Shown: piece after piece, positions 16,715 through 39,113 of the stretch
How the letters are laid out: the number at the start of each line of letters is the position of its first letter
Position numbering within the stretch: the stretch's first letter is position 1
Virus record (IMG/VR): IMGVR_UViG_2563366830_000017
Location: 1 to 54,176 of that record
DNA from: a virus
Taxonomy: Duplodnaviria; Heunggongvirae; Uroviricota; Caudoviricetes
Length of the DNA: 54,176 nucleotides
Reading direction: 5' to 3' (one strand)
Translations under genes and position numbers: made by a program
The notes under the pieces: generated by a model
Told to the model about the DNA's origin: nothing
The model's input: the letters and a program-made list of their open reading frames with translations, nothing else
Databases searched by the model: none

Positions 16715-17797
16715 TTAGAACTGGTAAACCAGACCTACAGCGACGATGTCGTCGGTATCAATACCAGCTGTTTTGGTAAACTTACTATCGTCAATTAAGT
16801 TGATTTTGTAATCAACAAAAGTGGACATGTTTTTATTAAAGTAGTAAGTAGCACCGACATCGACATACTTGACTAAGTCTCGGTCACCATGAACACCAAG
16901 GTCTTTACCTTTTGACTGAAGGTAAGCAACAGATGGGCGCAGACCGAAGTCAAACTGATATTGTGCTACTGCTTCAAAGTTTTGTGCTTTGTTTGCAATA
17001 TGGTTATTACCAAAAACGGTCATATTCTGAGTTTCAGAATATGTGGTAGCCAGATAGATATTGTTCGCATCATATTTCAGGCCTGCAGCCCATACTTCCG
17101 CATTTTTGCCGGAGGCATTGAATTTGCTCTTACCATAGGCGACCTGACCGTCAGTGCGATCTGATTTAGCATAGGTTGCACCCACGCCGAATCCTTCATA
17201 CTCATAAGTAGTGGAGAAACCGAAACCATCACCATTGGCTTCAGTTACGTCAGTGCGGTCATTTTTACCCTGATACTGAGCAGCAAAGTTCAGGCCATCG
17301 ACCAGACCAAAGAAGTCGTTGTTACGATAAGTTGCAACACCAGTAGTGCGACCAGTCATGAACACATCTGTTTGGGTCCAGGTATCACCACCGAATTCTG
17401 GCAGAACGTCAGTCCACGCACCGATGTCGTATGCTACACCGTAGTTACGGCCGTAATCGATTGAGCCGTAATCACCAAATTTCAGGCCTGCAAATGCAAG
17501 ACGGGTTTTGTCTTTGGAAGAACCTTGAGATTCAGCGCGGTTGCCTTTGAATTCATATTCCCACTGACCGAAACCAGTCAGTTGATCGTTGATTTGGGTT
17601 TCACCTTTGAAGCCAAGACGGGCATAAGTAGTATCACCATCATCTGCATCATTAGAGGAGAAGTAGTGCTTAGCATTAACTTTCCCGTACAGATCCAGCT
17701 TGTTACTGTCTTTATTATAAATTTCAGCTGCCTGAGCAGACATCGCCATCAGTACTGATGCAGCTACAGCAGAAATTGCCACTGTTAATTTTTTCAT
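16715..17797 (-). CDS. nmpC: Outer membrane porin NmpC/Lc-type (OmpC family), prophage moron
   Basis: Signal peptide [23 protein letters not shown], porin-like sequence ending in ...VGLVYQF; start set at MKKL. Confidence 0.9.
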
Positions 17798-18369
17798 CGT
17801 GAGCCCTTTTTTTGAACTATTATTAAAAAATGATGTCACTGCGCGATAAATATTCATCTAATCAATGTGATTATTTCAAGATGTAAGTTTTGGTTTCTCG
17901 TTTGATTTGTGAAGTAGATCTCTATTTTTATCTGAACTTTTTTCTATCGAATCCTATTCATGGCTCTTGGCTGAATAAAAATAAATCTATTAGCCAATTT
18001 ATATTAATGGCTGTTATTTATAAGTGCTCTATAATTTGAAGGTTCAATTTAAATCGGCTAAAAATAACGCTGGAAATTATTTGTTGGTTATTTGTTGAGA
18101 TTTGCTTATGTATTTGTAGTGGTGTTTTCAATACTCGGTAGCATTCTCGCAAATATCATTTAGTGGTTTACGTACGTAAAAAATTGGTTATGCTGTTAAG
18201 AGTGGTTACTTCGTCACACAGCTTAAACCCGCCGTCGAGCGGGTTTTTCCATTTTTTGAGTCTCGATATTAGCTGATAACCCAATACCTGAGTTATTCAC
18301 TGACTCCGAGTCTGTTACGTTTCGTAGTATTCCCTCAATTTACACCCGCTTTGTCTGCGAGGTGGGGTT

Positions 18370-20590: not shown

Positions 20591-20800
20591 GGGTCCTTTC
20601 CGGCGATCCGACAGGTTACGGGGCGGCGACCTCGCGGGTTTTCGCTATTTATGAAAATTTTCCGGCTTAAGGCGTTTCCGTTCTTCTTCGCCGTAACTTC
20701 ATGTTTTTATTTAAAACACCCCCTAAAAAGAAAGGAAACGACAGGTGCTGAAAACGGGCTTTTTGGCCTCTGTCGTTTCCTTTCTCTGTTTTTGGCCGTG
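20591..20800 (+). other. cos: Prophage cos site (cosQ-cosN-cosB); cohesive-end sequence GGGCGGCGACCT at 20621..20632
   Basis: Sequence matches lambda cos as recalled; immediately upstream of Nu1. Confidence 0.9.
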
Positions 20801-20809
20801 GAATGAACA

Positions 20810-21329
20810 ATGGAAGTCAACAAAAAGCAGCTGGCTGACATTTTCGGTGCGAGTATCCGTACCATTCAGAACTGGCAGGAACAGGGAATGCCCGTTCTGC
20901 GAGGCGGTGGCAAGGGTAATGAGGTGCTTTATGACTCTGCCGCCGTTATAAAATGGTATGCCGAAAGGGATGCTGAAATTGAGAACGAAAAGCTGCGCCG
21001 GGAGGTTGAAGAACTGCGGCAGGCCCGCGAGGCAGATCTCCAGCCAGGGACTATTGAGTACGAACGCCATCGACTTACGCGTGCGCAGGCCGACGCACAG
21101 GAACTGAAGAATGCCAGAGACTCCGCTGAAGTGGTGGAAACCGCATTCTGTACTTTCGTGCTGTCGCGGATCGCAGGTGAAATTGCCAGTATTCTCGACG
21201 GGATCCCCCTGTCGGTGCAGCGGCGTTTTCCGGAACTGGAAAACCGACATGTTGATTTCCTGAAACGGGATATCATCAAAGCCATGAACAAAGCAGCCGC
21301 GCTGGATGAACTGATACCGGGGTTGCTGA

Positions 21330-21355
<26 letters not shown>
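20810..21355 (+). CDS. nu1: Terminase small subunit Nu1
   Basis: 181 aa MEVNKKQLADIFGASIRTIQNWQEQGMPVLRGGGKGNEVLYD... matches lambda Nu1. Confidence 0.97.
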
Positions 21356-25036
<3,681 letters not shown>

Positions 25037-25056
<20 letters not shown>

Positions 25057-26356
25057 TCTCCCGCATATTGCCAGCATGGCCTTTAATGAGCCGCTGATGC
25101 TTGAACCCGCCTATGCGCGGGTTTTCTTTTGTGCGCTTGCAGGCCAGCTTGGGATCAGCCGCCTGACGGATGCGGTGTCCGGTGACAGCCTGACTGCCGG
25201 AGAGGCACCCGCGACGCTGGCGTTATCCGTTAATGATGACGGACCACGACAGGCCCGCAGTTATCAGGTCATGAATGGCATCGCCGTGCTGCCGGTTTCC
25301 GGCACGCTGGTCAGCCGGACGCGGGCGCTGCAGCCGTATTCGGGGATGACCGGTTACAACGGCATTATCGCCCGTCTGCAACAGGCTGCCAGTGACCCGA
25401 TGGTGGACGGCATTCTGCTGGATATGGACACGCCAGGCGGAATGGTGGCGGGGGCATTTGACTGCGCTGACATCATCGCCCGTGTGCGTGACATAAAACC
25501 GGTATGGGCGCTGGCCAACGACATGAACTGCAGTGCAGGTCAGCTGCTTGCCAGTGCCGCCTCCCGGCGTCTGGTCACGCAGACCGCCCGGACAGGCTCC
25601 ATCGGCGTCATGATGGCTCACAGTAATTACGGTGCTGCCCTGGAGAAACAGGGTGTGGAAATCACGCTGATTTACAGCGGCAGCCATAAGGTGGATGGCA
25701 ATCCCTACAGCCATCTTCCGGATGACGTCCGGGAGACACTGCAGTCCCGGATGGACGCAACCCGCCAGATGTTTGCGCAGAAGGTGTCGGCATATACCGG
25801 CCTGTCTGTGCAGGCTGTGCTGGATACCGAGGCTGCAGTGTACAGCGGTCAGGAGGCCATTGATGCCGGACTGGCTGATGAACTTGTTAACAGCACCGAT
25901 GCGATCACCGTCATGCGTGATGCACTGGATGCGCGTAAATCCCGTCTCTCAGGAGGGCGAATGACCAAAGAGACTCAATCAACAACTGTTTCAGCCACTG
26001 CTTCGCAGGCTGACGTTACTGACGTGGTGCCAGCGACGGAGGGCGAAAACGCCAGCGTGGCGCAGCCGGACGTGAACGCGCAGATCACCGCAGCGGTTGC
26101 GGCAGAAAACAGCCGCATTATGGGGATCCTCAACTGTGAGGAGGCTCACGGACGCGAAGAACAGGCGCGCGTTCTGGCAGAAACCCCCGGAATGACCGTG
26201 GAAACGGCCCGCCGCATTCTGGCTGCAGCACCACAGAGTGCACAGGCGCGCAGTGACACTGCGCTGGATCGTCTGATGCAGGGGGCACCGGCACCGCTGG
26301 CTGCAGGTAACCCGGCATCTGATGCCGTTAACGATTTGCTGAACACACCAGTGTAA
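25037..26356 (+). CDS. C: Head protease/minor capsid protein C (GTG start)
   Basis: In-frame with ORF-track 24890..26356; lambda C begins at TAELRNLPHIASMAFNEPLML; GTG at 25037. Confidence 0.88.
25751..26356 (+). CDS. nu3: Scaffolding protein Nu3 (in-frame internal start within C)
   Basis: ATG (MDATRQMFAQ...) 714 nt into C, same offset as lambda Nu3. Confidence 0.75.
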   Translation: MDATRQMFAQKVSAYTGLSVQAVLDTEAAVYSGQEAIDAGLADELVNSTDAITVMRDALDARKSRLSGGRMTKETQSTTVSATASQADVTDVVPATEGENASVAQPDVNAQITAAVAAENSRIMGILNCEEAHGREEQARVLAETPGMTVETARRILAAAPQSAQARSDTALDRLMQGAPAPLAAGNPASDAVNDLLNTPV

Positions 26357-26365
26357 GGGATGTTT

Positions 26366-26698
26366 ATGACGAGCAAAGAAACCTTTACCCATTACCAGCC
26401 GCTGGGCAACAGTGACCCGGCTCATACCGCAACCGCGCCCGGCGGATTGAGTGCGAAAGCGCCAGCAATGACCCCGCTGATGCTGGACACCTCCACCCGT
26501 AAGCTGGTTGCGTGGGATGGCACCACCGACGGTGCTGCCGTTGGCATTCTGGCGGTTGCTGCTGACCAGACCAGCACCACGCTGACGTTCTACAAGTCCG
26601 GCACGTTCCGTTATGAGGATGTGCTCTGGCCGGAGGCTGCCAGCGACGAGACGAAAAAACGGACCGCGTTTGCCGGAACGGCAATCAGCATCGTTTAA
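26366..26698 (+). CDS. D: Head decoration protein D
   Basis: 110 aa [27 protein letters not shown]... matches lambda gpD. Confidence 0.95.
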
Positions 26699-26753: not shown

Positions 26754-27029
26754 ATGTCGATGTACACAACCGCCCAGCTGCTGGCGGCAAATGAGCAGAA
26801 ATTTAAGTTTGATCCGCTGTTTCTGCGTCTCTTTTTCCGTGAGAGCTATCCCTTCACTACGGAGAAAGTCTATCTCTCACAAATTCCTGGACTGGTAAAC
26901 ATGGCGCTGTACGTTTCGCCGATTGTTTCCGGTGAGGTTATCCGTTCCCGTGGCGGCTCCACCTCTGAATTTACGCCGGGATATGTCAAACCCAAGCACT
27001 TAGCATGGCTTTCTGAGGCTTTCGTGTAG
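26754..27029 (+). pseudogene. E: Major capsid protein E, 5-prime fragment (82 lambda-like codons then 10 foreign codons and stop) created by insertion
   Basis: MSMYTTAQLLAANEQKFKFDPLFLRLFFRESYPFTT...GYVKPKH matches lambda E; then LAWLSEAFV-stop. Confidence 0.9.
26989..26998. repeat. Left copy of 10-bp direct repeat AACCCAAGCA at island junction
   Basis: Identical 10-mer at 38323..38332; lambda-like E sequence ends here. Confidence 0.75.
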
Positions 27030-27110
27030 TTGCTGGTTTTTACACTTAATCTTTTGATAATAAAGAATAAGTTTATCTGGCGCTTTCACTGAATTTTCCT
27101 CGTTATCTGT

Positions 27111-27146
27111 GTGTTGCAATCATCTCTGTATTGCAGCTTGTATTGC
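27111..27146 (+). repeat. Candidate integrase arm-type sites: three copies of TGT(A/G)TTGC(A) near left end
   Basis: GTGTTGCA, TGTATTGCA, TGTATTGC read in sequence; two more TGTATTGCA copies at 38227..38247. Confidence 0.45.
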
Positions 27147-27161
27147 TTTTTGGGGCTAAAA

Positions 27162-28397
27162 ATGGCTGGCGAGAACAAACTGAGCGACAAAGCGCTTAAA
27201 GGATATCTGGGGAAACCCAGAGAAAAGCAGATCACCATTGCTGATGGAAAGGGGCTTTCTATTCGTGTGAGTACTAAAGGGGCTGTGAGCTTTGTTTTCT
27301 TCTACAGGTTAGCAGGTGGCCGGGCTGCTCCGGTCTGGCTAACGTTGGGTAAATATCCTGATATGTCACTCAAACAGGCAAGGGAAAAGCGCGACGAGTG
27401 CCGTGGTTGGTTGGCTGACAAACGTGATCCGCGTATCCAGATTAAGATTCAGGCTGAAGAACGCTTAAAGCCGGTCACAGTGGAGGATGCACTAAATTAC
27501 TGGTATGAAAACTACTGTAAGGTGCGTCGTAAAACTCATGCTGTAACGCTTGGCAGATTTCGAAAGCATATCTTTCCCTATATCGGTCATTTGCCCGTAA
27601 ATGACACTCACCTATATGAATGGCTGGACTGTTTTGACCGAATTAAACGTAATGCACCAGTTATGGCGGCGTATGTTTTTTCTGACACTAAATTAGCTCT
27701 TCGTTTTTGTCGGGTACGCCAGTACGCGACGTGTGATGCTTTAAAGGATTTGCGCATGAGTGATGTGGGGCAGATTGCAGGTAAGCGGGATCGGGTTCTG
27801 GATGAAGCCGAACTCGGCCAGCTCTGGAAGGCAATTTTTGTCGAGCCTGATTTAAAACTAATGTCTGAATACACGCGAAAAATGTTTGTGCTTTGTACAG
27901 TATTTGGATGTCGAATGAGTGAAGCCCGATTATCAGAATGGAGCGAATGGGATCTCGAAAGTTGGGTTTGGACTGTGCCAAAAGATCACTCAAAAACTGG
28001 TGTTGAAATCGTCAGACCAGTACCTGAAATTCTACGACAGTGGGTAACGGATGTTCACGAAGAGACAAAACATACTGGTTATGTGCTGGGAAGTCTGCGA
28101 ATTAGAGAAAGCGTAAGCAAGATTGGGGGGAAAATCGGTAAACGTTTGGGCCATGAAAAACAATGGTCACTACACGACCTTAGAAGAACGCTATCTACTC
28201 ATCTAAGTGATCTCGGTGTTGAATTTTATGTAGTAGAACAACTGTTAGGCCATGCGCTACCTGGCGTGGCAGGTGTTTACAACCGGAGTAAGTTTATGGC
28301 TAAAAAACTGGATGCTCTGGAACTCTGGACTACATATCTCAATAGCATCGCAGCTGCTGATTCAAAAGTGACAATCCTCAAACAAAAGGCTGGTTAG
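27162..28397 (+). CDS. Tyrosine integrase, P4-type (island-encoded)
   Basis: 411 aa from ATG; C-terminal HxLRxT...HxxxxxxxxY-like catalytic region (HELR...HDLRRT...LGHA...VY); adjacent to left junction. Confidence 0.85.
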   Translation: MAGENKLSDKALKGYLGKPREKQITIADGKGLSIRVSTKGAVSFVFFYRLAGGRAAPVWLTLGKYPDMSLKQAREKRDECRGWLADKRDPRIQIKIQAEERLKPVTVEDALNYWYENYCKVRRKTHAVTLGRFRKHIFPYIGHLPVNDTHLYEWLDCFDRIKRNAPVMAAYVFSDTKLALRFCRVRQYATCDALKDLRMSDVGQIAGKRDRVLDEAELGQLWKAIFVEPDLKLMSEYTRKMFVLCTVFGCRMSEARLSEWSEWDLESWVWTVPKDHSKTGVEIVRPVPEILRQWVTDVHEETKHTGYVLGSLRIRESVSKIGGKIGKRLGHEKQWSLHDLRRTLSTHLSDLGVEFYVVEQLLGHALPGVAGVYNRSKFMAKKLDALELWTTYLNSIAAADSKVTILKQKAG

Positions 28398-28398
28398 C

Positions 28399-28629
28399 AT
28401 GAAAAAAATGGCAATTGTTGATAAAAAGGGTCTGGAGTACATTCCTAACATTGACCGAATGATCCGTGAGAAAGAATGTCGGGAGCTAACTACTCTTGCG
28501 AACAGCACACGCTGGAAGCTGGAGAAGGAAGGAAAATTTCCTAAGCGGATCAAGATTGGTTCCACTGCTGTTGCATATCGTCTTTCAGAAGTGCAGGCAT
28601 GGATTCGAGGTGAGTGGGAAACAACTTAA
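28399..28629 (+). CDS. AlpA-family HTH regulator/excisionase-like protein
   Basis: 76 aa; placed immediately after integrase as in P4-like and PICI elements. Confidence 0.7.
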   Translation: MKKMAIVDKKGLEYIPNIDRMIREKECRELTTLANSTRWKLEKEGKFPKRIKIGSTAVAYRLSEVQAWIRGEWETT

Positions 28630-28636
28630 CTATTAG

Positions 28637-29467
28637 GTGGGCATTGTGGCTATATTTCATTATACAGATCTTTTTGGTTTGAAAGGTATATTAGACTCTA
28701 ATTCTTTATGGGCTACAAACATATATTTCTTAAATGATAAAGAGGAGTCTAACCATGGATGTGAATGCTTTCGAAATACAATTAAAATAGTTGATGACAA
28801 TATCATTCCAAAAGATAAGAAAACTATTTTGCTCAAGTCTCTTGACATGTATGAGAAAGGGAGGTTACAAAAAGAAAAAGGGATTGATAAACATGTTTAT
28901 AGCATCTCTTTTTGTAAGGAAAACGATAAGTTAAGTCAGTGGAGAGGTTACGGAAATAAACAGGGTGTTTGCATTGAGTTTGATGCGGATGAACTTGTGA
29001 GCTTTTCTCAAAATATTTATTTAAATTGTGTTGCACATGATGTTATATATTCAAATAATAACGATATTACTAAGATGAGTAAGGAGTTGGGAGAGTTTTT
29101 TTCTTGTAATGGTATTAACATTAAAGAAATGAATGATCATTTTGTAACAATGGTCTCTACGTATCAATTTATATCTAAATACATCCCATTTTTTAAACAT
29201 CCTAGTTTTATCGAAGAGAATGAATTTAGATTGGTATTTACTCCGTGGATGCAAATGCCAGATGTGCACTTCAGAATAAATAATAATGGAATCATCCCTT
29301 ATATCATCATTGATAATAAAGATAATAGAAAGTTACCAATTAAAAGCATTACAATTGGCCCGACAAACGATTATGATTTCATTGAGGCTGGTATAAAAAT
29401 GTTCTTGGATTCAAGAGGATTTAGTTCTGTGGAAATTAAATCCTCATCAATTCCATTCAGGGGGTAA
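28637..29467 (+). CDS. DUF2971-like protein (AT-rich cargo gene)
   Basis: N-terminal FHYTDLFGLKGILDSNSLWATNIYFLNDKEE resembles the DUF2971 signature as I recall it; GTG start; low GC. Confidence 0.55.
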   Translation: MGIVAIFHYTDLFGLKGILDSNSLWATNIYFLNDKEESNHGCECFRNTIKIVDDNIIPKDKKTILLKSLDMYEKGRLQKEKGIDKHVYSISFCKENDKLSQWRGYGNKQGVCIEFDADELVSFSQNIYLNCVAHDVIYSNNNDITKMSKELGEFFSCNGINIKEMNDHFVTMVSTYQFISKYIPFFKHPSFIEENEFRLVFTPWMQMPDVHFRINNNGIIPYIIIDNKDNRKLPIKSITIGPTNDYDFIEAGIKMFLDSRGFSSVEIKSSSIPFRG

Positions 29468-29598
29468 GGATTAACACTTTTAATCTGTGATATTATAAAA
29501 ATGGTGGATAAAGGCGACCAGAATTGGTCGCCAATGTGAGTATATAGTTAGCCTTAATCAGAATACGAGGTTATCGCCTGATAGGCAATGTGAACAGT

Positions 29599-29955
29599 TC
29601 AATATTTAGGTGGTTCAACAAGAGCGTTTATCATTGCTCTCAAATTATCGCGAACACTTATCCAAGTCTGTTCTGCTCGTTCTAACTCATCAGTGTACAA
29701 CTTTAATGTTTTATCTATGCCATATGTGGCTATTAAATTTATAGCTTCTTGTAATTTTTCAGGATTATTCCTTCTTGGGGGAGTGAATATACCACGGATT
29801 TTTCCGGTAATTAAAGCTTTACGGTGTCTACATAGAATACCTTTACTTCCTGCTGGACAATTACAAGTCATGATTAGCGAGCCAGAATCGTTTGATACAG
29901 TGACTATGTATACATCCAAACTACTGCTACTTGTTGCGAAGAATTCGTATTTCAT
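29599..29955 (-). CDS. SWIM-type zinc-finger protein (CxCx8CxH), AT-rich cargo gene
   Basis: Motif CNCPAGSKGILCRH seen in translation; convergent with DUF2971-like gene. Confidence 0.5.
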   Translation of the reverse strand: MKYEFFATSSSSLDVYIVTVSNDSGSLIMTCNCPAGSKGILCRHRKALITGKIRGIFTPPRRNNPEKLQEAINLIATYGIDKTLKLYTDELERAEQTWISVRDNLRAMINALVEPPKY

Positions 29956-29982
29956 GTGTTAGCTCCTTGACTTCAATTATTC

Positions 29983-30114
29983 TTATCCTTTTGGTTCAAT
30001 ACCGCGCCGTAGCAGCTCTTTGCGCCCTAATTCTTTAAGCCAGTTGGCTAGGCTTATGCCGTCGCTCTGCGCTTCTTTGTCGAATTGCTCTTTTAGCTCT
30101 GGAGAAATTCGCAT
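29983..30114 (-). CDS. Small basic protein, possible ribbon-helix-helix repressor (43 aa from ATG)
   Basis: MRISPELKEQFDKEAQSDGISLANWLKELGRKELLRRGIEPKG; divergent from downstream plus-strand operon. Confidence 0.4.
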   Translation of the reverse strand: MRISPELKEQFDKEAQSDGISLANWLKELGRKELLRRGIEPKG

Positions 30115-30313
30115 TCTGAATTGTGGAGATTGCCCATCACCCTTAGGACTTTTATCGCGTTTGATCGTTGACAAGTGACCACCTATTGAATTAGCCTTTT
30201 CATTGTTAGGTGGCCACCTTAACACGGGGGCACTTAAAAAAGCAAAGCCCGAAGGTGCTGGGAACACCAACGGGCTTCTAACCACCAACGATAGCAACAG
30301 TATCGAGGTAGCT

Positions 30314-30517
30314 ATGAGAAATCATACCACACACCCGCAAGGGCGGGACCCGCACAACCTGAATAAATACATCTGGCGTTTTATCGCCTTGAGTACGGCA
30401 CAACCGCGCATGATTACCATCGAGGCCATCAGCGAACAGGAAGCCCGCCAGCAATCCCCAACTGGCTGCGTGATGGTATTCGCCGCCCGTATTCGTCAGG
30501 AGGTGTGCCGTGCTTAA
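30314..30517 (+). CDS. Hypothetical small protein, first gene of island early operon
   Basis: ORF track 30203..30517; ATG at 30314 chosen. Confidence 0.4.
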   Translation: MRNHTTHPQGRDPHNLNKYIWRFIALSTAQPRMITIEAISEQEARQQSPTGCVMVFAARIRQEVCRA

Positions 30518-30695
30518 AACCTTCCGTGTATTTGCCCGAGCTGTTAACCCACTGGGCCACACAATTGGTATCACTCAGAACGTGAAGGCTGTTAATGTTC
30601 AGACGGCTATTGCTGCGGTGAGAAGCGAATCATCAGAATATGGCTTATCACAAGTCATTATTTCAGCAGTGTATGAATTAAAAGAGGTGCATTAA
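30510..30695 (+). CDS. Hypothetical small protein
   Basis: 61-aa ORF, overlapping starts/stops in operon. Confidence 0.45.
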   Translation: MLKTFRVFARAVNPLGHTIGITQNVKAVNVQTAIAAVRSESSEYGLSQVIISAVYELKEVH

Positions 30696-30886
30696 TGCAG
30701 GAAATCACATTACACGAAGCCGCTGAACGTGCGCACCAGACAGAAATTATTTGCCGCCTTCTTGAGGTATACCCGAACAAAATTACAGATGCTGATATAT
30801 CCGCGCTGGCGAGCCTACTGGCGCGCCTTTCGGGAAGTGTCGCTAGTTTCCTGATTGAGGAAGAAAGTAAGCTGGTGGGGGATTAA
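30695..30886 (+). CDS. Hypothetical small protein
   Basis: 63-aa ORF, translationally coupled in operon. Confidence 0.45.
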   Translation: MQEITLHEAAERAHQTEIICRLLEVYPNKITDADISALASLLARLSGSVASFLIEEESKLVGD

Positions 30887-31108
30887 ATGAATACAGAACG
30901 GGAAGTCTTTTTTAAATTGTTAGCATGTGCAGAAAGTCCATTAACTTTAAATAATTCAGCAAAAGCAATATTAAATATGTGGCTTGATTGCATAAATGAC
31001 AATGAAGATGCAAATATTGCTTATGGCCTGTTGTCACTTATTGATGAATCAGCAGAAAAACTCAATGACGCAATAAATAGTGCCCTGCTATCAAATAAGT
31101 CGAGTTAA
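30887..31108 (+). CDS. Hypothetical small protein
   Basis: 73-aa ORF in operon. Confidence 0.45.
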   Translation: MNTEREVFFKLLACAESPLTLNNSAKAILNMWLDCINDNEDANIAYGLLSLIDESAEKLNDAINSALLSNKSS

Positions 31109-31125
31109 GTCGAGGAATAAATAAT

Positions 31126-31425
31126 ATGGAAATGAAAAATTCTGGCTTTATTGCCAGCGGCCCCGCTCGGCCTGAATTTATGAACGGCGATATTTACCGC
31201 GATAAATACGGCGGCACGGTAACGATTAAAGGCGTGGCAGAACGGCGCATCACTTACCGCCGTGAGGGGTATAGCTATGACTGCGTGATGCCTGTTTATC
31301 AGTTCCGGCGTGATTTTTCCCTGGTATATGCCGCACCCCGCAGTAAGCCCATCAGCAGGGAAAAAGCGCGGGGAAACATCCAGAAAATGAAAAGCATGAT
31401 TAACGCATTCAGGGGCAAAAAATGA
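31126..31425 (+). CDS. Hypothetical protein (99 aa)
   Basis: ORF immediately upstream of and overlapping primase start. Confidence 0.5.
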   Translation: MEMKNSGFIASGPARPEFMNGDIYRDKYGGTVTIKGVAERRITYRREGYSYDCVMPVYQFRRDFSLVYAAPRSKPISREKARGNIQKMKSMINAFRGKK

Positions 31426-33173
31426 AACTGGCACCGAACTTAAAAAAACAGCCACGCGACAGACTGACAGAGGTAATCATCTTTGCAGGTAGTGATGCGT
31501 GGAGCCATGCGAAAGAGTGGCGGGAATGGGCGGGTAAACATATTGCCGCCGACGATGTGCCGCCTGTCGTGCTGGCTGATGAGCAACTGAAAAATATCAC
31601 CGATTACCGGATCATTGATGAAGATCGTCAGTGTGTGCGTGTTTACCGCGCAGGACATATCACAGAGCACAGCATGACGCAGATTGTTACGTTACTGGCT
31701 GTGGCTGGAGTGAAGACCGTACACGAATACGCGGGGATTACTGACACCAGCCCAGTGGATTTATCCGAGCAGTTGCCGCGACTCAAAGAGGAATGCGAGC
31801 GTGGGGAAAGTCTGGTGCTTAATCTTCCGACGAAGCAAAAGGCGCAACTTTCACAGATGGCAGACAGTGAACGTGCACAACTACTTGCCGATCGCTTTGA
31901 TGGTGTGTGTGTTCATGCAGAAAGTGAAATCGTCCACGTATGGCGCGGCGGGGTATGGTGTCCGGTCAGCACAATGGAGCTGAGCCGCGAAATGGTGGCG
32001 ATCTATTCAGAGCACAGGGCCACGTTCAGCAAACGTGTAATCAATAACGCCGTGGAAGCGTTAAAAGTTATTGCCGACCCCATGGGGGAGCCGTCCGGTG
32101 ATTTGCTACCGTTCACTAATGGTGTGCTTAACCTGAAAACGGGGGAATTTTCTCCGCACTCGCCGGAGCACTGGAGCACCACGCACAATGGCATTGAGTA
32201 CACGCCACCAGTAGCAGGGGAAAACATCCGCGATAATGCGCCAAATTTCCATAAATGGCTTGAACATGCCGCAAGAAAAGACCCGCGCAAGATGATGCGT
32301 ATATGTGCCGCGTTATACATGATTATGGCGAACCGCTACGACTGGCAGATGTTCATTGAGGCCACCGGAGACGGGGGAAGCGGTAAGAGTACATTTACCC
32401 ATATTGCCACCCTGCTTGCTGGCAAACAGAACACCGTAAGCGCGGAGATGACATCACTCGATGATGCAGGAGGGCGCGCGCAGGTTGTCGGGAGTCGTCT
32501 TATCGTCCTTGCCGATCAGCCGAAATATACGGGGGAAGGCACGGGCATCAAGAAAATCACGGGAGGCGATCCCGTTGAAATTAACCCGAAATATGAGAAG
32601 CGATTCACGACGATAATAAGGGCGGTGGTACTGGCAACCAATAACGACCCGATGATCTTTACCGAACGGGCCGGAGGTGTGTCACGCCGTCGGGTGATTT
32701 TCCGGTTCGACAACATTGTAAGGGAGGACGAAAAAGACAAGGAATTACCGGAAAAGATAGCGGCAGAAATCCCCGTAATTATCCGCCGCTTGCTGGCTAA
32801 TTTTGCTGACCCTGAAAAGGCACGGGCTTTATTACTGGAACAGCGTGACGGTGATGAAGCTCTGGCAATAAAGCAGCAAACGGATCCGGTTGTTGAGCTT
32901 TGCGCGGCGCTGGAGTTTCTGGAGGAAGCTCGTGGGCTAATGATGGGCGGTGGTGGTGACACCGTGAAGTACACGACCAGAAACAGCCTTTACCGTGTCT
33001 ATATGGCCTTCATGGCATACACAGGAAAGGGGAAATGTTTGAGCGTGAATGAGTTCGGAAAGGCTATGAGGTCAGCGGCGAAAGTTTACGGATATGAATA
33101 TATTACGCGAAAAGTTAAGGGAGTCACGCAGACCAACGCAACGACTACTGATGATTGCGATGCGTTTTTATAA
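31422..33173 (+). CDS. Primase/replication protein (P4-alpha C-terminal-like, with Walker A GDGGSGKST)
   Basis: 583 aa; P-loop GDGGSGKS seen; followed by iteron array. Confidence 0.8.
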   Translation: MKLAPNLKKQPRDRLTEVIIFAGSDAWSHAKEWREWAGKHIAADDVPPVVLADEQLKNITDYRIIDEDRQCVRVYRAGHITEHSMTQIVTLLAVAGVKTVHEYAGITDTSPVDLSEQLPRLKEECERGESLVLNLPTKQKAQLSQMADSERAQLLADRFDGVCVHAESEIVHVWRGGVWCPVSTMELSREMVAIYSEHRATFSKRVINNAVEALKVIADPMGEPSGDLLPFTNGVLNLKTGEFSPHSPEHWSTTHNGIEYTPPVAGENIRDNAPNFHKWLEHAARKDPRKMMRICAALYMIMANRYDWQMFIEATGDGGSGKSTFTHIATLLAGKQNTVSAEMTSLDDAGGRAQVVGSRLIVLADQPKYTGEGTGIKKITGGDPVEINPKYEKRFTTIIRAVVLATNNDPMIFTERAGGVSRRRVIFRFDNIVREDEKDKELPEKIAAEIPVIIRRLLANFADPEKARALLLEQRDGDEALAIKQQTDPVVELCAALEFLEEARGLMMGGGGDTVKYTTRNSLYRVYMAFMAYTGKGKCLSVNEFGKAMRSAAKVYGYEYITRKVKGVTQTNATTTDDCDAFL

Positions 33174-33179
33174 AAAATG

Positions 33180-33430
33180 GCAATGGTTATCTACCTTGTC
33201 TACCTGACTGAAAGAAAATACTTTTATTTCAATGTATTAATGCAGGTAGATAACTATTTTTCACTGTCTACCTGTTATCTACCTTATCTACCCATTTTTG
33301 TAGACAGGTAAGGAGACGGGTAGAGATGAGGTAGACAGCTATTTGGGGCTGTCTACCTCCCTGAAACCCGCGCCATTACTGGCCTGATAACTAATCAGGT
33401 AGACAAGGTAGACAAGGTGGTGGTGCACAA
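33180..33430. repeat. ori: Island replication-origin iterons (GGTAGACA / TGTCTACC family, both orientations)
   Basis: At least 10 copies of (A)GGTAGAC(A) or its complement within 250 bp directly after primase gene. Confidence 0.75.
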
Positions 33431-33462
33431 AAAACTTTTTAAACGAGGGGGTAAAAATAAAA

Positions 33463-33720
33463 ATGCACACATCAGGAAAACTGAACAAACATATAAAGCC
33501 ACATTACCGCGCCCTTGATATGGCTGAACACTGGCTAAGGGTGGCGATTAAGGCAATAGACCGCAACGCCGGGGAAGGATACGCGAAAGCACATCCCGAA
33601 CTGATAAGCGCATTCATGACAACGGCGGCTGCAAACTTTGCCACGCTGACCGAACGGGAGATTGCTGAAGCGGAGGAAGTGACAACAATCAATATTAAGT
33701 CCGGAGAGCAGGCAGCATGA
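33463..33720 (+). CDS. Hypothetical protein (85 aa)
   Basis: ORF overlapping ssb start. Confidence 0.45.
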   Translation: MHTSGKLNKHIKPHYRALDMAEHWLRVAIKAIDRNAGEGYAKAHPELISAFMTTAAANFATLTEREIAEAEEVTTINIKSGEQAA

Positions 33721-34166
33721 CGGCGCAAATATCAGTTTACGGGCGGTTGGTGGACGACCCGCAGACAAAACAGACCAGCAAGGGCACCCCCATGACGCTG
33801 GCGCGTATGGCGGTATCACTGCCCTGCAGTCAGTCGGATGACGGTCTGGCGACGTTGTGGTTATCTGTCCTGGCGTTTGGCAGACAAGCCGACGCGCTGG
33901 CAAAGCATCACAAAGGCGAACTCCTGAGCGTGGCGGGTAACATGCAGATGAGCCAGTGGACTGGACAGAACGGCGAAACGCGGCAGGGCTGGCAGGTTAT
34001 CGCAGACAGCGTAATCAGTGCGCGATCGGTGCGACCGGGCGGCAAAAAAGGCCAACAGGGGCAGGCTACTGACGCACTGAACAGAGCAAAACAACAGGCA
34101 GATCAGCAAGGAAGCCAGCCACCAGAGGGAGATAATGAGCAATGGGGAGATGATATCCCGTTTTAA
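33717..34166 (+). CDS. ssb: Single-stranded DNA-binding protein
   Basis: OB-fold-like N-region, Gln/Gly-rich linker and acidic C-terminal tail ending DDIPF. Confidence 0.85.
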   Translation: MTAQISVYGRLVDDPQTKQTSKGTPMTLARMAVSLPCSQSDDGLATLWLSVLAFGRQADALAKHHKGELLSVAGNMQMSQWTGQNGETRQGWQVIADSVISARSVRPGGKKGQQGQATDALNRAKQQADQQGSQPPEGDNEQWGDDIPF

Positions 34167-34382
34167 ATATTGCCAATAAAAAAAGCCGGAAAAAATAAAT
34201 TTTCCGGCATGCTACATAAATCCCGACCAAAGGGAGTGAAGATATTAACACTAATTGTCCGCACTGAAGTTGTCACCCCAAAACTTTATACAACATTGCA
34301 CTCGGTTGCATGTGTTCGCATGACAAATATCGGTGATAGCATATATCCACAATTATTTTTAATGAATGCAAAGAGGATGCGT

Positions 34383-35423
34383 ATGGTTGATTTATATTCG
34401 CCTACTCAGCTTGTACAGGTAGTTAATGCTGTAGATGTACAAAAACAACTAAATGCGTTATTTACCAGTTTGTTTTTTACTCGCTCGGTAATGTTTGAAT
34501 CGCGCGATATTATTCTTGATACAATCGACGATCCAAATATCCCAATTGCAGCGTTTTGTTCTCCTATGGTGGGTAGTAAAGTTTCACGTGACGAAGGGTA
34601 CGAATCAAAAACAATTCGTCCAGGCTATATGAAGCCGAAAAGCAGCATTGATCCAAATAAGTTAGCTGTGCGCCCTGCTGGTGTGTCACCTGAGCAATAC
34701 AATGCTTTTGGGGCGCGTAATATTAAAGTTAAACAGGCGATTGTAAATCAGGCTAAAGCTATTCGTGCACGTATTGAATGGCTTGCTGTTCAGGCAATCA
34801 CAACGGGGAAAAATATCATTGAGGGCGATGGTATTGAACGTTATGAGCTGGACTGGAATATAAAACCACAAAATATCATCACTCAGTCTGGCGGTACTGA
34901 GTGGTCAGGTAAGGATAAAGAAACTTTTGATCCAAATGATGATATTGAGAGCTACGCAGAATTTAGTGAGGGCGTCACTAATATCATCATTATGGGTGGT
35001 AATGTATGGAAGAAATACCGTTCATTCAGAGCGATAAAAGAGGCTTTGGATACCCGTCGTGGTTCTAATTCCGAACTGGAAACGGCCCTTAAAGACCTTG
35101 GTGATTCGGTGAGTTTTAAAGGGTATATGGGCGATGTTGCGATTGTTGTTTACAGCGGGCGTTATACCGACGAGGACGGAACAGAAAAACATTTCCTTGA
35201 TCCTGATTTGATGGTGCTTGGCAATACGGCTCTTCAGGGGATTGTCGCCTATGGCGGTATTCAGGATCCGGAGCTAATCCGAATGGGGCTGACTAAAGCC
35301 GAACTTGCACCGAAAAACTATATTGTGCCTGGTGATCCGGCTATTGAATATGTGCAGACACATTCAGCACCACAGCCAATACCGGCCCGCATCAATCGTT
35401 TTGTTACCGTTCGCATTGGCTAA
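34383..35423 (+). CDS. Island-encoded major capsid protein, diverged homolog of lambda E
   Basis: Blocks shared with prophage E: NIITQSGGTEWSGKDKETFDPNDDIESYA, LDTRRGSNSELETALKDLG, YMGDVAIVVYSGRY, MVLGNT; ORF track 34170 start is upstream. Confidence 0.85.
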   Translation: MVDLYSPTQLVQVVNAVDVQKQLNALFTSLFFTRSVMFESRDIILDTIDDPNIPIAAFCSPMVGSKVSRDEGYESKTIRPGYMKPKSSIDPNKLAVRPAGVSPEQYNAFGARNIKVKQAIVNQAKAIRARIEWLAVQAITTGKNIIEGDGIERYELDWNIKPQNIITQSGGTEWSGKDKETFDPNDDIESYAEFSEGVTNIIIMGGNVWKKYRSFRAIKEALDTRRGSNSELETALKDLGDSVSFKGYMGDVAIVVYSGRYTDEDGTEKHFLDPDLMVLGNTALQGIVAYGGIQDPELIRMGLTKAELAPKNYIVPGDPAIEYVQTHSAPQPIPARINRFVTVRIG

Positions 35424-35432
35424 GGGGGAGCA

Positions 35433-35774
35433 ATGGCTACTCATTACACTGAACTCATGGCTGGCACTGAAGCACTGGTGACTACGCTGGGGATATTTTC
35501 AGCTAATAAAGGGGTAATTCCTGCATTTACGCCACTGATGCAGGAAGATGCAACAGGTGCACTGGTGGTATGGGATGGTTCGAGCGTAGGTAAAGCGGTT
35601 TATGTTTCCGCTGTACAAATCGACACCGCGAAAAAAACACAGGCTCAGGTCTATAAGACAGGTGTCTTAAATGTTGATGCTCTGAACTGGCCTGAGTCTG
35701 TTAAAGAACTGTCAGTAAAGATTGCAGCGTTTGTTGGCTCAGGTATTTCTGTTCAGCCGCTGGCTCGTGTGTAA
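35433..35774 (+). CDS. Island-encoded decoration protein, diverged homolog of lambda D
   Basis: THYTEL, FTPLMQEDATGALVVWDGSSVGKAV, YKTGVLNVDALNWPE, AAFVGSGISV align with prophage D motifs. Confidence 0.8.
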   Translation: MATHYTELMAGTEALVTTLGIFSANKGVIPAFTPLMQEDATGALVVWDGSSVGKAVYVSAVQIDTAKKTQAQVYKTGVLNVDALNWPESVKELSVKIAAFVGSGISVQPLARV

Positions 35775-35785
35775 AGGGGGATACA

Positions 35786-36169
35786 ATGCAGAATGATTAC
35801 AATGACCTTAAGCCAATTGCCGAAATGATGTACCCGAATCCAGCTGTAGAGGAATTAAAAGCTATCGCTGACAAAATGTGTTTAAGCGAGCGCCTTGTTG
35901 ATATGAATCAGGTGATGGAAATTACAACCCTGAGTCGTCGTACACTGCTAAACCTTGAGGCTAGTGGAGAGTTCCCGGAGCGTGTGCAGGTTACGGAAGG
36001 GCGTAAGGCCTGGTATTTAAGTGAAGTGATCGACTGGATAAATAATATTCCTCGCGCTTCTGAATATTGCCGCGTACCTGTCCCAAAAAAGCCAGATGCG
36101 GCGCTATGCCTCAAGATTGAGCGTGTACGCCGCAATGCACGGGATGGTCGCTATAAGCTGATTGGTTGA
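35786..36169 (+). CDS. HTH protein (AlpA/MerR-like C-terminal half) immediately upstream of island cos
   Basis: 127 aa; segment MNQVMEITTLSRRTLLNLEASGEFPERVQVTEGRKAWYLSEVIDWI looks like AlpA-type HTH. Confidence 0.55.
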   Translation: MQNDYNDLKPIAEMMYPNPAVEELKAIADKMCLSERLVDMNQVMEITTLSRRTLLNLEASGEFPERVQVTEGRKAWYLSEVIDWINNIPRASEYCRVPVPKKPDAALCLKIERVRRNARDGRYKLIG

Positions 36170-36194
36170 TGAAATTAGGGCCCGCTCTGGCTGG

Positions 36195-36400
36195 CGGGTC
36201 CTTTCCGGTGATCCAGAACGTTACGGGGCGTCAGGCGCGCAGATTCTTGCTATTTATGACAATTTTCTGCGATTTGCCGTTTCCGTTCTTCTTCCTTGTA
36301 ACTTATTGTTTTTACTAGAAATACCCTCTAAAAAGAAAGGAAATGACAGGTGCTGAAAACAGGCTTTTGGGTCTCCGTCATTTCCTTTCTCATTTTTATC
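36195..36400 (+). other. cos: Island cos-like site, same orientation as prophage cos
   Basis: GGGTCCTTTCCGGTGATCC...ACGTTACGGGGCG...CGCG...GCTATTTATGA...AAAAAGAAAGGAAATGACAGGTGCTGAAAAC aligns block-by-block with 20591..20800. Confidence 0.8.
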
Positions 36401-36652
36401 TAAAAGTAAGCATCGAGGCCACCCCAAATGCTTATAGAGGTTATTGTGTCACTATGCGTACTGTTCAGGATTTAAAGTAGCAAGACATCTAGTTGCTTGC
36501 AGTTTTGGCGAATGATGTGAGGTTCTCTATAACAGATAATGTAACAAGTTACTGATATATTCTGTTATGGTTGACTTTAAATTTTGTTGCTCCTTCAATG
36601 AATTATTGAGGGGTAAAAATTAGGCGTGATAAGAATCGATCACGCCTATTGT

Positions 36653-37969
36653 TTATCTTGAAGAAATTTTAGGCAGGCTTTTTAAAAATAAATCTTTATT
36701 TCTACTTGCATCAGTTAAAAGTGTTAGGAATATTTTATCTGTAGGAGTGCATGTGCTCTTGTTTAACAGTAATTCACCAAGTTTCTGTAATCGAGAGAAT
36801 TGCCCATCCTCTTGGATTCTGTGACGAAGTGTACTATCATTTTTAATAACATCAACAAATGCAGAAACCATATTAATATCAAAGTGTTCAAACATTTCCA
36901 ATATTAAAGGTGCAGCCCCATTTGAATAAAAATTCTTCCTTCCATACTGATAGCTGAAACCACGATGGCCAACATAAGTTTTTGTAATGGCTGAAACAAA
37001 TTCAACAATATTATCTTCAGGGACGAAACTCGAGAATGGTAATAATTGGGTTACGATTTTTTCCTCTTCTGACCAATTATCTAAAGACTCGGTGAGTTTA
37101 TTAATGAGAGGCTCAATAATAACTTTTCGGGATGCAGGGCTAATATACATCAGTCCATCTACCAATAGTATGAATTGTTGTGCCTTCTCTATCTTATTGT
37201 TGTTTCCTGAAACTAAATACTTGTCAAATTGTTGGCCGACTTTACGTCGGTCGTCTTTTGAAAGTAATGTCCATAAAATAGGTGCGCAAAATTCAATGTT
37301 GTTTCTGAGTTCACTTGATATATTGGATGAGCAGTATGTGCCAAAAAAACGAGAGGATAATTCACTGATATAAATTGCAGGTAGATCTGAAAAGGCTTGC
37401 TTAACTGCCAGACTATTTTTATTAAATGTTGCCGAATCCATTTCTGAAAGATATGTAGTTATATCTATGATGGCTGGTGGAAACTCTTTAGAAAGAACGT
37501 ATTTATTACAATCATTAATCAGGTTCACTACTTTGATTAAATCAGGGTCGCTACTTTGTGGATGTCCACCAAATAGATTCCTGGTTTCTCTAGCTTGTTG
37601 TAATAGTTTCTGACCTTCTCGATCGATAACTCCTATTTTAAATGCTCCATCTATTAAATCAAAGTCGCTCACATAATCCTGAAAATCTTCATACGTTTTA
37701 ATTTCTTTTTTTTGTTTACACTCTTTGTTGAATAGATCTAGGCTACGATGAATTATCTTTTGACGTAAATCATCAACTACAGCATTCCAGTAAGCAGTGA
37801 TGGCACTTCTATAACCTTTTACAGGAAGAACTCTTATTGCTTCTGAAATATATGGGCAGTCAACTACATCATGCCTCACAGTTGAGAGCGCAGTTTGTAA
37901 CAATGTAACTTCTGTAGAGTCTAGTGGAGTTGGCTGCACTAAATGAGAACTTATCTCTGTACCCTTCAT
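36653..37969 (-). CDS. Hypothetical 438-aa protein, AT-rich cargo gene between island cos and right junction
   Basis: Low GC; contains R-x5-H motif (RNLFGGH); no family confidently assigned. Confidence 0.6.
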   Translation of the reverse strand: MKGTEISSHLVQPTPLDSTEVTLLQTALSTVRHDVVDCPYISEAIRVLPVKGYRSAITAYWNAVVDDLRQKIIHRSLDLFNKECKQKKEIKTYEDFQDYVSDFDLIDGAFKIGVIDREGQKLLQQARETRNLFGGHPQSSDPDLIKVVNLINDCNKYVLSKEFPPAIIDITTYLSEMDSATFNKNSLAVKQAFSDLPAIYISELSSRFFGTYCSSNISSELRNNIEFCAPILWTLLSKDDRRKVGQQFDKYLVSGNNNKIEKAQQFILLVDGLMYISPASRKVIIEPLINKLTESLDNWSEEEKIVTQLLPFSSFVPEDNIVEFVSAITKTYVGHRGFSYQYGRKNFYSNGAAPLILEMFEHFDINMVSAFVDVIKNDSTLRHRIQEDGQFSRLQKLGELLLNKSTCTPTDKIFLTLLTDASRNKDLFLKSLPKISSR

Positions 37970-38322
37970 TTCAGGATTTTCCTATTCTTTTCCATTTTTC
38001 TACTCTATTGAATTTGAAAAAGATATCAAGTTCGTTCTTGCCAGTTTTAAGTGGAAAATTTGATGTTACCTTATTGAGATAAGGCAGTTCTCTATAACCT
38101 ATTGTTATTAATTATTTTTATTTTTTTCCAATTCAGATGTTTAGGGCTAAGAAGTTAAGTGAGAGTTCACAGCAAAACTGCTTCTAGTTCCTCACCGAGG
38201 AGCAAAAGGTTAAGACAGCGTACTTTGTATTGCACAATGTATTGCAGAACCTTCTTTCGAAAGCTACAACAATCAATTTTATATTGAAAATTCAATCATA
38301 TCCTTTCGATATTGACTCATAT

Positions 38323-38332
38323 AACCCAAGCA
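38323..38332. repeat. Right copy of 10-bp direct repeat AACCCAAGCA at island junction
   Basis: Identical to 26989..26998; lambda-like E sequence resumes here. Confidence 0.75.
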
Positions 38333-39113
38333 TGAAGTGAATCCGCAGATGACCCTGCGTCGCCTGCCGGATGAAGATCCGCAGAATCTGGCGGACCCGG
38401 CTTACCGTCGCCGTCGCATCATCATGCAGAACATGCGTGACGAAGAGCTGGCCATTGCCCAGGTGGAAGAGATGCAGGCAGTTTCTGCCGTGCTTAAGGG
38501 CAAATACACCATGACCGGTGAAGCCTTCGATCCGGTTGAGGTGGATATGGGCCGCAGTGCGGCCAACAACATCACGCAGTCCGGCGGCACGGTGTGGAGC
38601 AAGCGTGACAAGTCCACGTATGACCCGACCGACGATATCGAAGTCTACGCGCTGAACGCCAGCGGCGTGGTGAATATCATCGTGTTTGATCCGAAAGGCT
38701 GGGCGCTGTTCCGTTCCTTCAAGGCCGTCAGGGAGAAGCTGGATACCCGTCGCGGCTCTCATTCCGAGCTGGAGACAGCGGTAAAAGACCTGGGCAAAGC
38801 GGTGTCTTATAAGGGAATGTATGGCGATGTGGCCATCGTCGTGTATTCCGGACAGTACGTGGAAAACGGCGTCAAAAAGAACTTCCTGCCGGACAACACG
38901 ATGGTGCTGGGTAACACTCATGCACGCGGTCTGCGCACCTATGGCTGCATTCAGGATGCGGATGCATTGAGTGAGGGTATTAATGCGTCTCCCCGTTATC
39001 CGAAAAACTGGAAGACATCCGGCGATCCGGCGCGTGAGTTCACCATGATTCAGTCAGCACCGCTGATGCTGCTGGCTGACCCTGATGAGTTCGTTTCCGT
39101 ACAACTGGCGTAA
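38323..39113 (+). pseudogene. E: Major capsid protein E, 3-prime fragment (codons ~80-341)
   Basis: PKHEVNPQMTLRRLPDEDPQNLADPAYRRRRIIMQNM...EFVSVQLA matches lambda E C-terminal 260 aa. Confidence 0.9.

Follow-up and report, generated by a model that had tools for sequence, protein, structure and literature searches.

A cos-bearing satellite interrupts the capsid gene E of a lambda-like prophage in the stretch of viral DNA analyzed here, the 54,176-nucleotide IMG/VR record IMGVR_UViG_2563366830_000017 (Caudoviricetes), referred to below as the window. The satellite, an island of 11,334 bp including one copy of its attachment core, belongs to the helper-embedded phage-inducible chromosomal islands (HE-PICIs), with 11capE as its type and E:Phage_cap_E:80 as its site, and was put into E by its own tyrosine integrase. 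Such elements were described by Tommasini, Mageeney & Williams in 2023 (PMC10111431), whose type element, Eco567.11capE, interrupts E in a prophage that E. coli NRG857c carries at icd; the element class, its insertion site and its cos are already known from that work, as is the limit that lambda packaging sets on the composite of helper and island. Two details are new here. The island carries a helper-type cosB and no recognizable Rpp, and island and helper differ in their 12-nt cohesive-end allele (GGGCGTCAGGCG versus GGGCGGCGACCT). These are concrete experimental handles rather than discoveries in themselves. With regard to packaging, tetramers of the island in full-size lambda heads are moderately favored over small capsids.

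Insertion of the island into capsid gene E

The boundaries of the island are set by a 10-bp core, AACCCAAGCA, which occurs exactly twice in the window, at 26989-26998 (attL, + strand) and, as a direct repeat, at 38323-38332 (attR, + strand). This core is the identity block given for the same site in PMC10111431, where a(a/g)cc(c/g)aagca is common to attL and attR. An earlier reading of the letters alone (the sequence-only reading) had placed the island at 26999-38322, which is exactly the DNA between the two copies. The published attP additionally carries a doubled motif, tgTGTATTGCantgTGTATTGCa, located ~81 bp upstream and ~132 bp downstream of its center. In the window, two matches were observed against 0.01 expected by chance: TGTATTGCagctTGTATTGC at 27127-27146 (+), starting ~133 bp after the core center, and TGTATTGCacaaTGTATTGC at 38226-38245 (+), ending ~82 bp before it. 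The doubled motif is the HE-PICI attP signature and a candidate binding site for the integrase arm domain or AlpA. At the core itself, the island-free target of strain N10 (locus L002) reads AAGCCGAAGCA and the window reads AAACCCAAGCA; because both core variants appear in the published table, the integrase seems to tolerate synonymous variation of the core.

The helper is a lambda-like prophage adjoining ybhC, the lambda attachment locus, and follows the lambda gene order (int ... Nu1, A, B, C, D, E, tail genes, J). Its head and packaging genes Nu1 (20810-21355, +, with the helper cos directly upstream), A, W, B, C/Nu3 and D occupy 20810-26698 (+) as intact open reading frames (ORFs) of lambda order and size, in agreement with the annotation of near-identical prophages. 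The insertion splits E at codons 79-82. The 5' fragment (codons 1-82; 26754-26998, +) reads into island DNA, where its frame terminates after 10 codons at a stop at 27029, and attP supplies no replacement copy of the target gene. The 3' fragment (codons 83-341 and the stop; 38333-39113, +) is followed by FI and the tail genes. Joining 26754-26998 to 38333-39113 in silico yields an uninterrupted 341-codon E gene. Furthermore, strain N10 carries the same ybhC-site prophage free of the island, and its intact 1026-bp E (L002, 38352-39377) aligns across the junction. The G+C content of the insert is 43%, versus 57% in the flanking late genes.

The gene content of the island is consistent with this assignment. 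The integrase gene (27162-28397, +; Arm-DNA-bind_3 and Phage_integrase domains) encodes a protein 99.5% identical to the 11capE integrase, an identity that by itself places it in the HE-PICI integrase clade, and the adjacent gene (28399-28629, +) encodes an AlpA excisionase/activator (Phage_AlpA, 3e-15). The int, alpA, primase, E and D genes all lie on the + strand, the same as Nu1 to J, as in the E:Phage_cap_E:80 site group, whose identity block and doubled motif are both found in the window. Supplementary File 1 of PMC10111431 lists elements of exactly 11,334 bp (Eco874.11 and Eco875.11) in 56-59 kb composites at PBP|ybhC. The general hallmarks of Gram-negative PICIs are likewise present: a size within ~10-15 kb, int with AlpA, a primase with an adjacent iteron origin, zones in the order integration, variable, replication and late, and neither tail nor lysis genes. 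The portal, protease/scaffold, terminase and head-tail connectors that a capsid-forming PICI brings along are missing; among the island proteins, the E and D homologs were the only head or packaging genes found. A P4-like satellite was ruled out, as Rfam returned no family at gathering score anywhere in the window when P4-like immunity RNAs (CI/C4-type) were sought, and the island proteins scanned gave no Pfam match to Sid, Psu or Delta. Boundaries, genes and a complete cos confirm that a cos-bearing satellite sits within a helper prophage, as the sequence-only reading had proposed.

The island cos and two cohesive-end alleles

The late end of the island is a compact cassette. The E homolog (346 aa; 34383-35423, +) matches Pfam Phage_cap_E over its full length (E=2e-41); its identity is 41% with helper E, 55% with c1499 of EcCICFT073 and 99.7% with the 11capE copy. 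It is followed by a homolog of the head decoration protein D (113 aa; 35433-35774, +; Pfam HDPD, 4e-15), whose identity is 38% with helper D and 54% with EcCICFT073 c1500, and by a second AlpA-family protein, a winged helix-turn-helix (HTH) protein of 127 aa (35786-36169, +) that resembles AlpA in PDB 8c3t (2e-9). As its gene lies directly upstream of cos, this protein may act at cos or in the control of late genes. It is 95-100% conserved together with its cassette, and no Rpp chain was present among its PDB sequence matches at E<=1.

The island cos (36196-36390, +) holds each of the lambda sub-sites: cosQ (36196-36214), the cosN 12-mer GGGCGTCAGGCG (36226-36237), the I2 segment, R3 (36278-36294), the I1 spacer, R2 (36336-36351) and R1 (36375-36390). 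The helper cos (20591-20785, +) consists of cosQ (20591-20609), the cosN 12-mer GGGCGGCGACCT (20621-20632), R3 (20673-20689), R2 (20731-20746) and R1 (20770-20785). The two are 84% identical over ~250 columns, in line with the 258-bp cos-like stretch reported to be common to HE-PICI and helper (PMC10111431). In both, cosN lies 52 bp from R3, 110 bp from R2 and 149 bp from R1, a spacing that matters because the R sites are the reference from which lambda terminase measures where to cut (PMC4856287). Compared with the helper, a single base is changed in each of island R2 and R1, and the two changes mirror one another within the inverted pair (ACGAC to ATGAC; GTCGT to GTCAT); they may represent a matched shift in the sites bound by the small terminase subunit (TerS) or conservation of a hairpin. 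The two cosN sites are 15,605 bp apart, both on the + strand, with the island cos downstream; two co-oriented cos sites in one prophage, some 15.6 kb apart from the Nu1 side to the island, had been correctly recognized from the letters.

Rpp-dependent cos PICIs encode an Rpp homolog and have a cosB unlike that of the helper; in EcCICFT073, RppA (c1503) binds helper TerS and redirects it (PMC6739421). In the island, neither blastp nor tblastn produced a match to RppA, no terS homolog was found, and R3, R2 and R1 are helper-like. Packaging redirection of the Rpp type was therefore ruled out, and the helper-type cosB suggests that the island cos is recognized directly by helper Nu1.

The variant cosN GGGCGTCAGGCG was present in all 8 E. 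coli islands and in the 36 IMG/VR loci first examined, a sample biased by having been picked for similarity to the variant itself, and the lambda-type cosN was present in 5 helper cos sites and in both EcCICFT073 cos sites. When E-D-HTH cassettes were sampled instead through their D and HTH genes, four carried the variant and four the lambda type. In a second scan of IMG/VR, the variant turned up next to Nu1/A operons of phage type at four loci (L058, L063, L071 and L076). In three of them (L058, L071 and L076), the island's allele stands directly upstream of Nu1 and A genes 98-99% identical to those of the window helper, in L071 together with intact D and E. The notion that the variant is specific to satellites was rejected on the basis of the even split and these operons. 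Two cohesive-end alleles thus circulate in E. coli lambdoid prophages and in their satellites. Because near-identical Nu1 and A adjoin the island allele elsewhere, the helper terminase is likely able to cut it. The helper and island ends in the window would not anneal with each other, and chimeric helper-island molecules could therefore not cyclize.

Distribution and mobility

The C-D-E'-int-alpA junction was found in 168 of 5426 complete E. coli genomes. Strain XSLGL-2 carries an island 100% identical over 11,324 bp in another prophage, at the Qin/ydf locus, and a junction query including 1.5 kb of helper DNA matched that strain at only 99.3% identity, which implies that the island has recently moved from one helper to another. 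Among complete RefSeq E. coli genomes, 99.3% was the best match, and none had the exact junction of this prophage with the island. A search of IMG/VR for island contigs that were free circles or came from virions found none; wherever a junction could be located, it had the integrated attL or attR form, as did all 36 copies checked.

Conservation of the E-D-HTH-cos cassette is 95-100% even between islands whose primases differ. Many sister cassettes have a small-terminase gene of their own downstream (L013, L017, L038, L041, L049, L051-L056 and L057-L075), either Nu1-like (71-72% identical) with a lambda-type cosB or distant (36%) with a different cosB. Since so many sister cassettes have their own terS after cos, the packaging determinants of this family are mosaic.

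Proposed packaging of the island

Lambda packages DNA of about 78-105% of 48.5 kb, or 37.8-50.9 kb. Four island copies amount to 45,336 bp, 93.5% of 48.5 kb; three copies would reach 70% and five 117%, neither of them within the range. The ~45-kb tetramer put forward by the sequence-only reading is accordingly the only integer multiple that fits a lambda head, although this fit does not separate the packaging modes. Some island copies carry IS1414 and reach ~12.65 kb; four of these would measure 50.6 kb, at the extreme top of the range. Among 124 E-site islands whose coordinates were read from the supplement of PMC10111431, many of them near-clones, the median length is 11,066 bp; 121 fit only as tetramers, two as trimers and one (18.4 kb) as no multiple. 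The upper limit of lambda packaging is cited in PMC10111431 as well.

Head geometry was considered alongside size. By geometric scaling, a head of triangulation number T=4 would have a capacity of ~17-21 kb, which an 11.3-kb monomer would fill to 54-68% and a dimer would overfill at 108-135%; a T=3 head would hold ~13.6 kb and would be filled to ~83% by a monomer. A satellite that builds T=4 heads usually has roughly one third of its helper's length; for the island, the ratio is ~0.25.

The cycle that we propose begins with helper induction, which, by analogy with the type element, would excise and replicate the whole composite. Helper late transcription from Nu1 to the truncated E would then run into the co-oriented int and alpA genes, and Int and AlpA would recombine the two cores and restore an intact E, as the sequence of the rejoined gene predicts. 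For the type element, excision has been demonstrated, reaching 42-98% of excised composites within 2-3 h of induction (PMC10111431). The free island would be expected to replicate into concatemers by means of its predicted primase and iteron origin. Helper Nu1/A would bind the island cos, in which the layout cosQ-cosN-I2-R3-I1-R2-R1 matches the helper spacing base for base. Because lambda-type termination needs a nearly full head, cutting would take place at each fourth cos, and 45.3-kb linear tetramers would enter helper-size heads, a step to which we give somewhat better than even chances. Interference with the helper would come chiefly from E being kept split until excision. The strong interference with helper propagation anticipated from the letters found no firm support: Rpp, the known interference factor of EcCICFT073, is absent, and the disruption of E until excision is the sole demonstrable interference.

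Tetramers are favored because of the precedents of EcCICFT073 and of cosmids together with the head geometry. When EcCICFT073 was mobilized with a lambda helper, all packaged DNA was phage-sized, and the authors concluded that the terminase passes over successive cos sites until the head is full (PMC6092414). This precedent is more telling than the size fit, since for every length of cos element up to 16.98 kb at least one multiple lands between 37.8 and 50.9 kb. Several points weigh against tetramers in helper heads. Apart from the nearly non-discriminating size fit, the helper and island cosN alleles differ, and cleavage of the island allele by the terminase of the window helper is a prediction. 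No virions of any HE-PICI or helper have been obtained, an attempt having failed (PMC10111431), which makes HE-PICI packaging entirely inferred; a literature search found no later experimental work on it. The EcCICFT073 precedent may not be transferable, given that its E and D are just 55% and 54% identical to those of the island. Finally, the conservation of the E-D-HTH-cos cassette beside differing primases suggests a selected function that tetramer packaging does not need. This conservation is without explanation under the tetramer model and therefore keeps alive the reading in which the island has its own, possibly small, capsid.

The sequence-only reading had offered that capsid as the alternative to the tetramer. 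Island E and D, made from the late transcript while helper E is split, would co-assemble with helper portal and scaffold into a small shell that takes one 11.3-kb monomer and excludes the ~45-kb helper genome, much as Ccm does for SaPIbov5. We regard this as unlikely. The homologs that it calls for are present at full length and adjoin cos within the conserved cassette, the cognate D would imply that island E forms a lattice of its own, a monomer would fill a scaled T=3 shell reasonably well, and there are precedents in SaPIbov5 Ccm and in PmCI172, an element with a capsid homolog that gives rise to small heads (PMC6092414, PMC5052747). However, EcCICFT073 has the homologous pair and packaged only phage-sized DNA, and deletion of c1499 or c1500 left its interference unrelieved (PMC6092414). 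The poor T=4 fill would moreover demand an unusual T=3-like tailed-phage head, and the size ratio is one quarter, not one third. In a related and somewhat more doubtful form of this idea, the E-D-AlpA-like-cos cassette would be a head module owned by the satellite: island E and D would stand in for split helper E in a satellite-specific shell, possibly a smaller one, and the separate 12-nt allele would keep satellite and helper chromosomes from annealing. If true, it would be without precedent for a Gram-negative cos satellite to redirect capsids by means of a lambda-E homolog, and the redirection would be linked in cis to the interruption of helper E. The packaging mode, whether tetramers in helper heads or monomers in heads of the island's own E and D, would show whether a satellite can silence the helper capsid gene in cis and substitute its own.

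Two other outcomes were weighed against tetramer packaging. The pairing in the window may be stranded, such that the island is not packaged from this genome, the disruption of E is regulated or accidental, E and D are a captured late-gene backup, and transfer proceeds via another helper, for example one with the matching cosN allele. The type composite gave neither plaques nor particles, many truncated helpers were reported and late-gene capture was proposed (PMC10111431); the mismatch between the island and resident helper alleles and the integrated state of the checked IMG/VR copies point the same way. Nevertheless, every ORF of the island, and every late ORF of the helper within the window, is intact, the identical island in XSLGL-2 implies recent transfer, the cosB and sub-site spacing match the window helper exactly, and terminases nearly identical to the helper's stand beside the island cosN allele in other prophages, which makes a stranded pairing improbable. 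The second outcome, raised by the sequence-only reading, is a split genome, with the unexcised composite packaged and cut at both cos sites into pieces of 15.6 and ~40 kb. The co-oriented sites do lie at the required distance, but a 15.6-kb segment would fill a head to just 32%, and at so low a filling the downstream cos is a poor substrate for lambda terminase. The composite length of 56-59 kb, derived from the PMC10111431 table and the island-free N10 prophage, leaves a remainder of ~40-43 kb, itself a packageable length; the arithmetic of this claim is therefore right. As a main outcome it is nonetheless very unlikely, because helper E stays broken for as long as the island is inserted, the ends of the products are non-complementary, the type element excises from 42-98% of composites by 2-3 h, helper-to-helper cos spacing amounts to ~115-120% of capacity, and the island would be killed along with the helper. 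A split helper genome is probably a rare dead end. The related inference that an unexcised composite cannot give viable helper chromosomes is supported. The whole composite exceeds lambda's packaging tolerance (PMC10111431).

Other genes of the island and the helper

Between alpA and the replication genes, the island has a variable zone (28637-31108, both strands). It encodes a DUF2971 protein (28637-29467, +), a SWIM zinc-finger protein (29599-29955, -), a HicB/YlcI-like ORF (29983-30297, -), an Icd-like ORF (30314-30517, +) and small ORFs. The DUF2971 and SWIM proteins gave weak matches to the PADLOC candidate systems PDC-S31 and PDC-S62. The replication zone comprises a DUF4222 protein and a D5_N/DUF5906 primase-helicase (31126-33173, +), a predicted replication origin (33186-33415) with at least 10 iterons of TCTACCT/AGGTAGA directly 3' of the primase gene, and, by family matches, an 85-aa ORF (phrog_1231) with SSB (33463-34166, +).

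The cargo region after cos (36430-38322) is AT-rich, with 34% G+C. It contains a terminator-like bidirectional hairpin (36621-36648) and a 438-aa ORF (36653-37969, -) that matched only phrog_27609, of unknown function. Neither Pfam nor PADLOC gave a match for this protein, and a defense annotation was dropped. Because NRG857c has HEPN and DUF262 genes in this slot and island copies diverge there, the post-cos slot appears to be a variable hotspot, and defense genes may be among its cargo. A scan of the island for promoters and terminators gave counts no higher than chance. In the helper, an OmpC-like porin gene (16715-17857, -) lies between Q and the lysis genes; the porin is likewise found in related prophages of CFT073 and NRG857c, in which an Iss/Bor-like lipoprotein gene is also annotated.

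Comparison with known systems

The closest relative among described elements is the type element itself. The window island shares with Eco567.11capE the insertion site in E, the 10-bp core, the doubled attP motif, the variant cosN allele and the orientation within the helper late operon, and its AlpA, D and HTH proteins are 100% identical to those of the type element, next to 99.5% for Int and 99.7% for E. In contrast, its primase is 48% identical to that of 11capE and closer to that of EcCICFT073 (80%), its post-cos cargo is the 438-aa protein instead of HEPN and DUF262, and its helper lies at ybhC rather than icd. NRG857c also keeps a 64-aa remnant ORF with a Nu1-like start after cos, which the window island lacks.

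EcCICFT073, the model Gram-negative cos PICI (Fillol-Salom et al. 2018, 2019), is mobilized by lambdoid helpers (PMC6092414, PMC6739421). It resembles the window island in its size of ~11.4 kb, in the order int-alpA-...-DUF4222-primase-SSB-E-D-cos, in its primase (80% identical) and E and D (c1499 and c1500, 55% and 54%), and in a lambda-like cosQ. However, EcCICFT073 sits next to phoQ, outside its helper. Its two cos sites have the lambda cosN allele, its cosB is unlike lambda's, and it encodes RppA (c1503); the window island, by contrast, has a single cos with a cosB of the helper type, and lacks Rpp.

SaPIbov5 with Ccm (Carpena et al. 2016, PMC5052747) offers the same combination of a helper cos and an HK97-fold major capsid homolog on a satellite. 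Ccm makes small capsids (PMC5052747), a role that is hypothetical for island E; SaPIbov5 is a Gram-positive element of unrelated sequence that is not embedded in its helper and has no decoration-protein partner. Lambda-packaged cosmids, for their part, are small replicons with one lambda-type cos whose concatemers are packaged as linear multimers filling the lambda head (PMC4856287), as proposed for the island. Unlike the island, cosmids are artificial and have neither integrase nor capsid genes, nor are they embedded in a helper.

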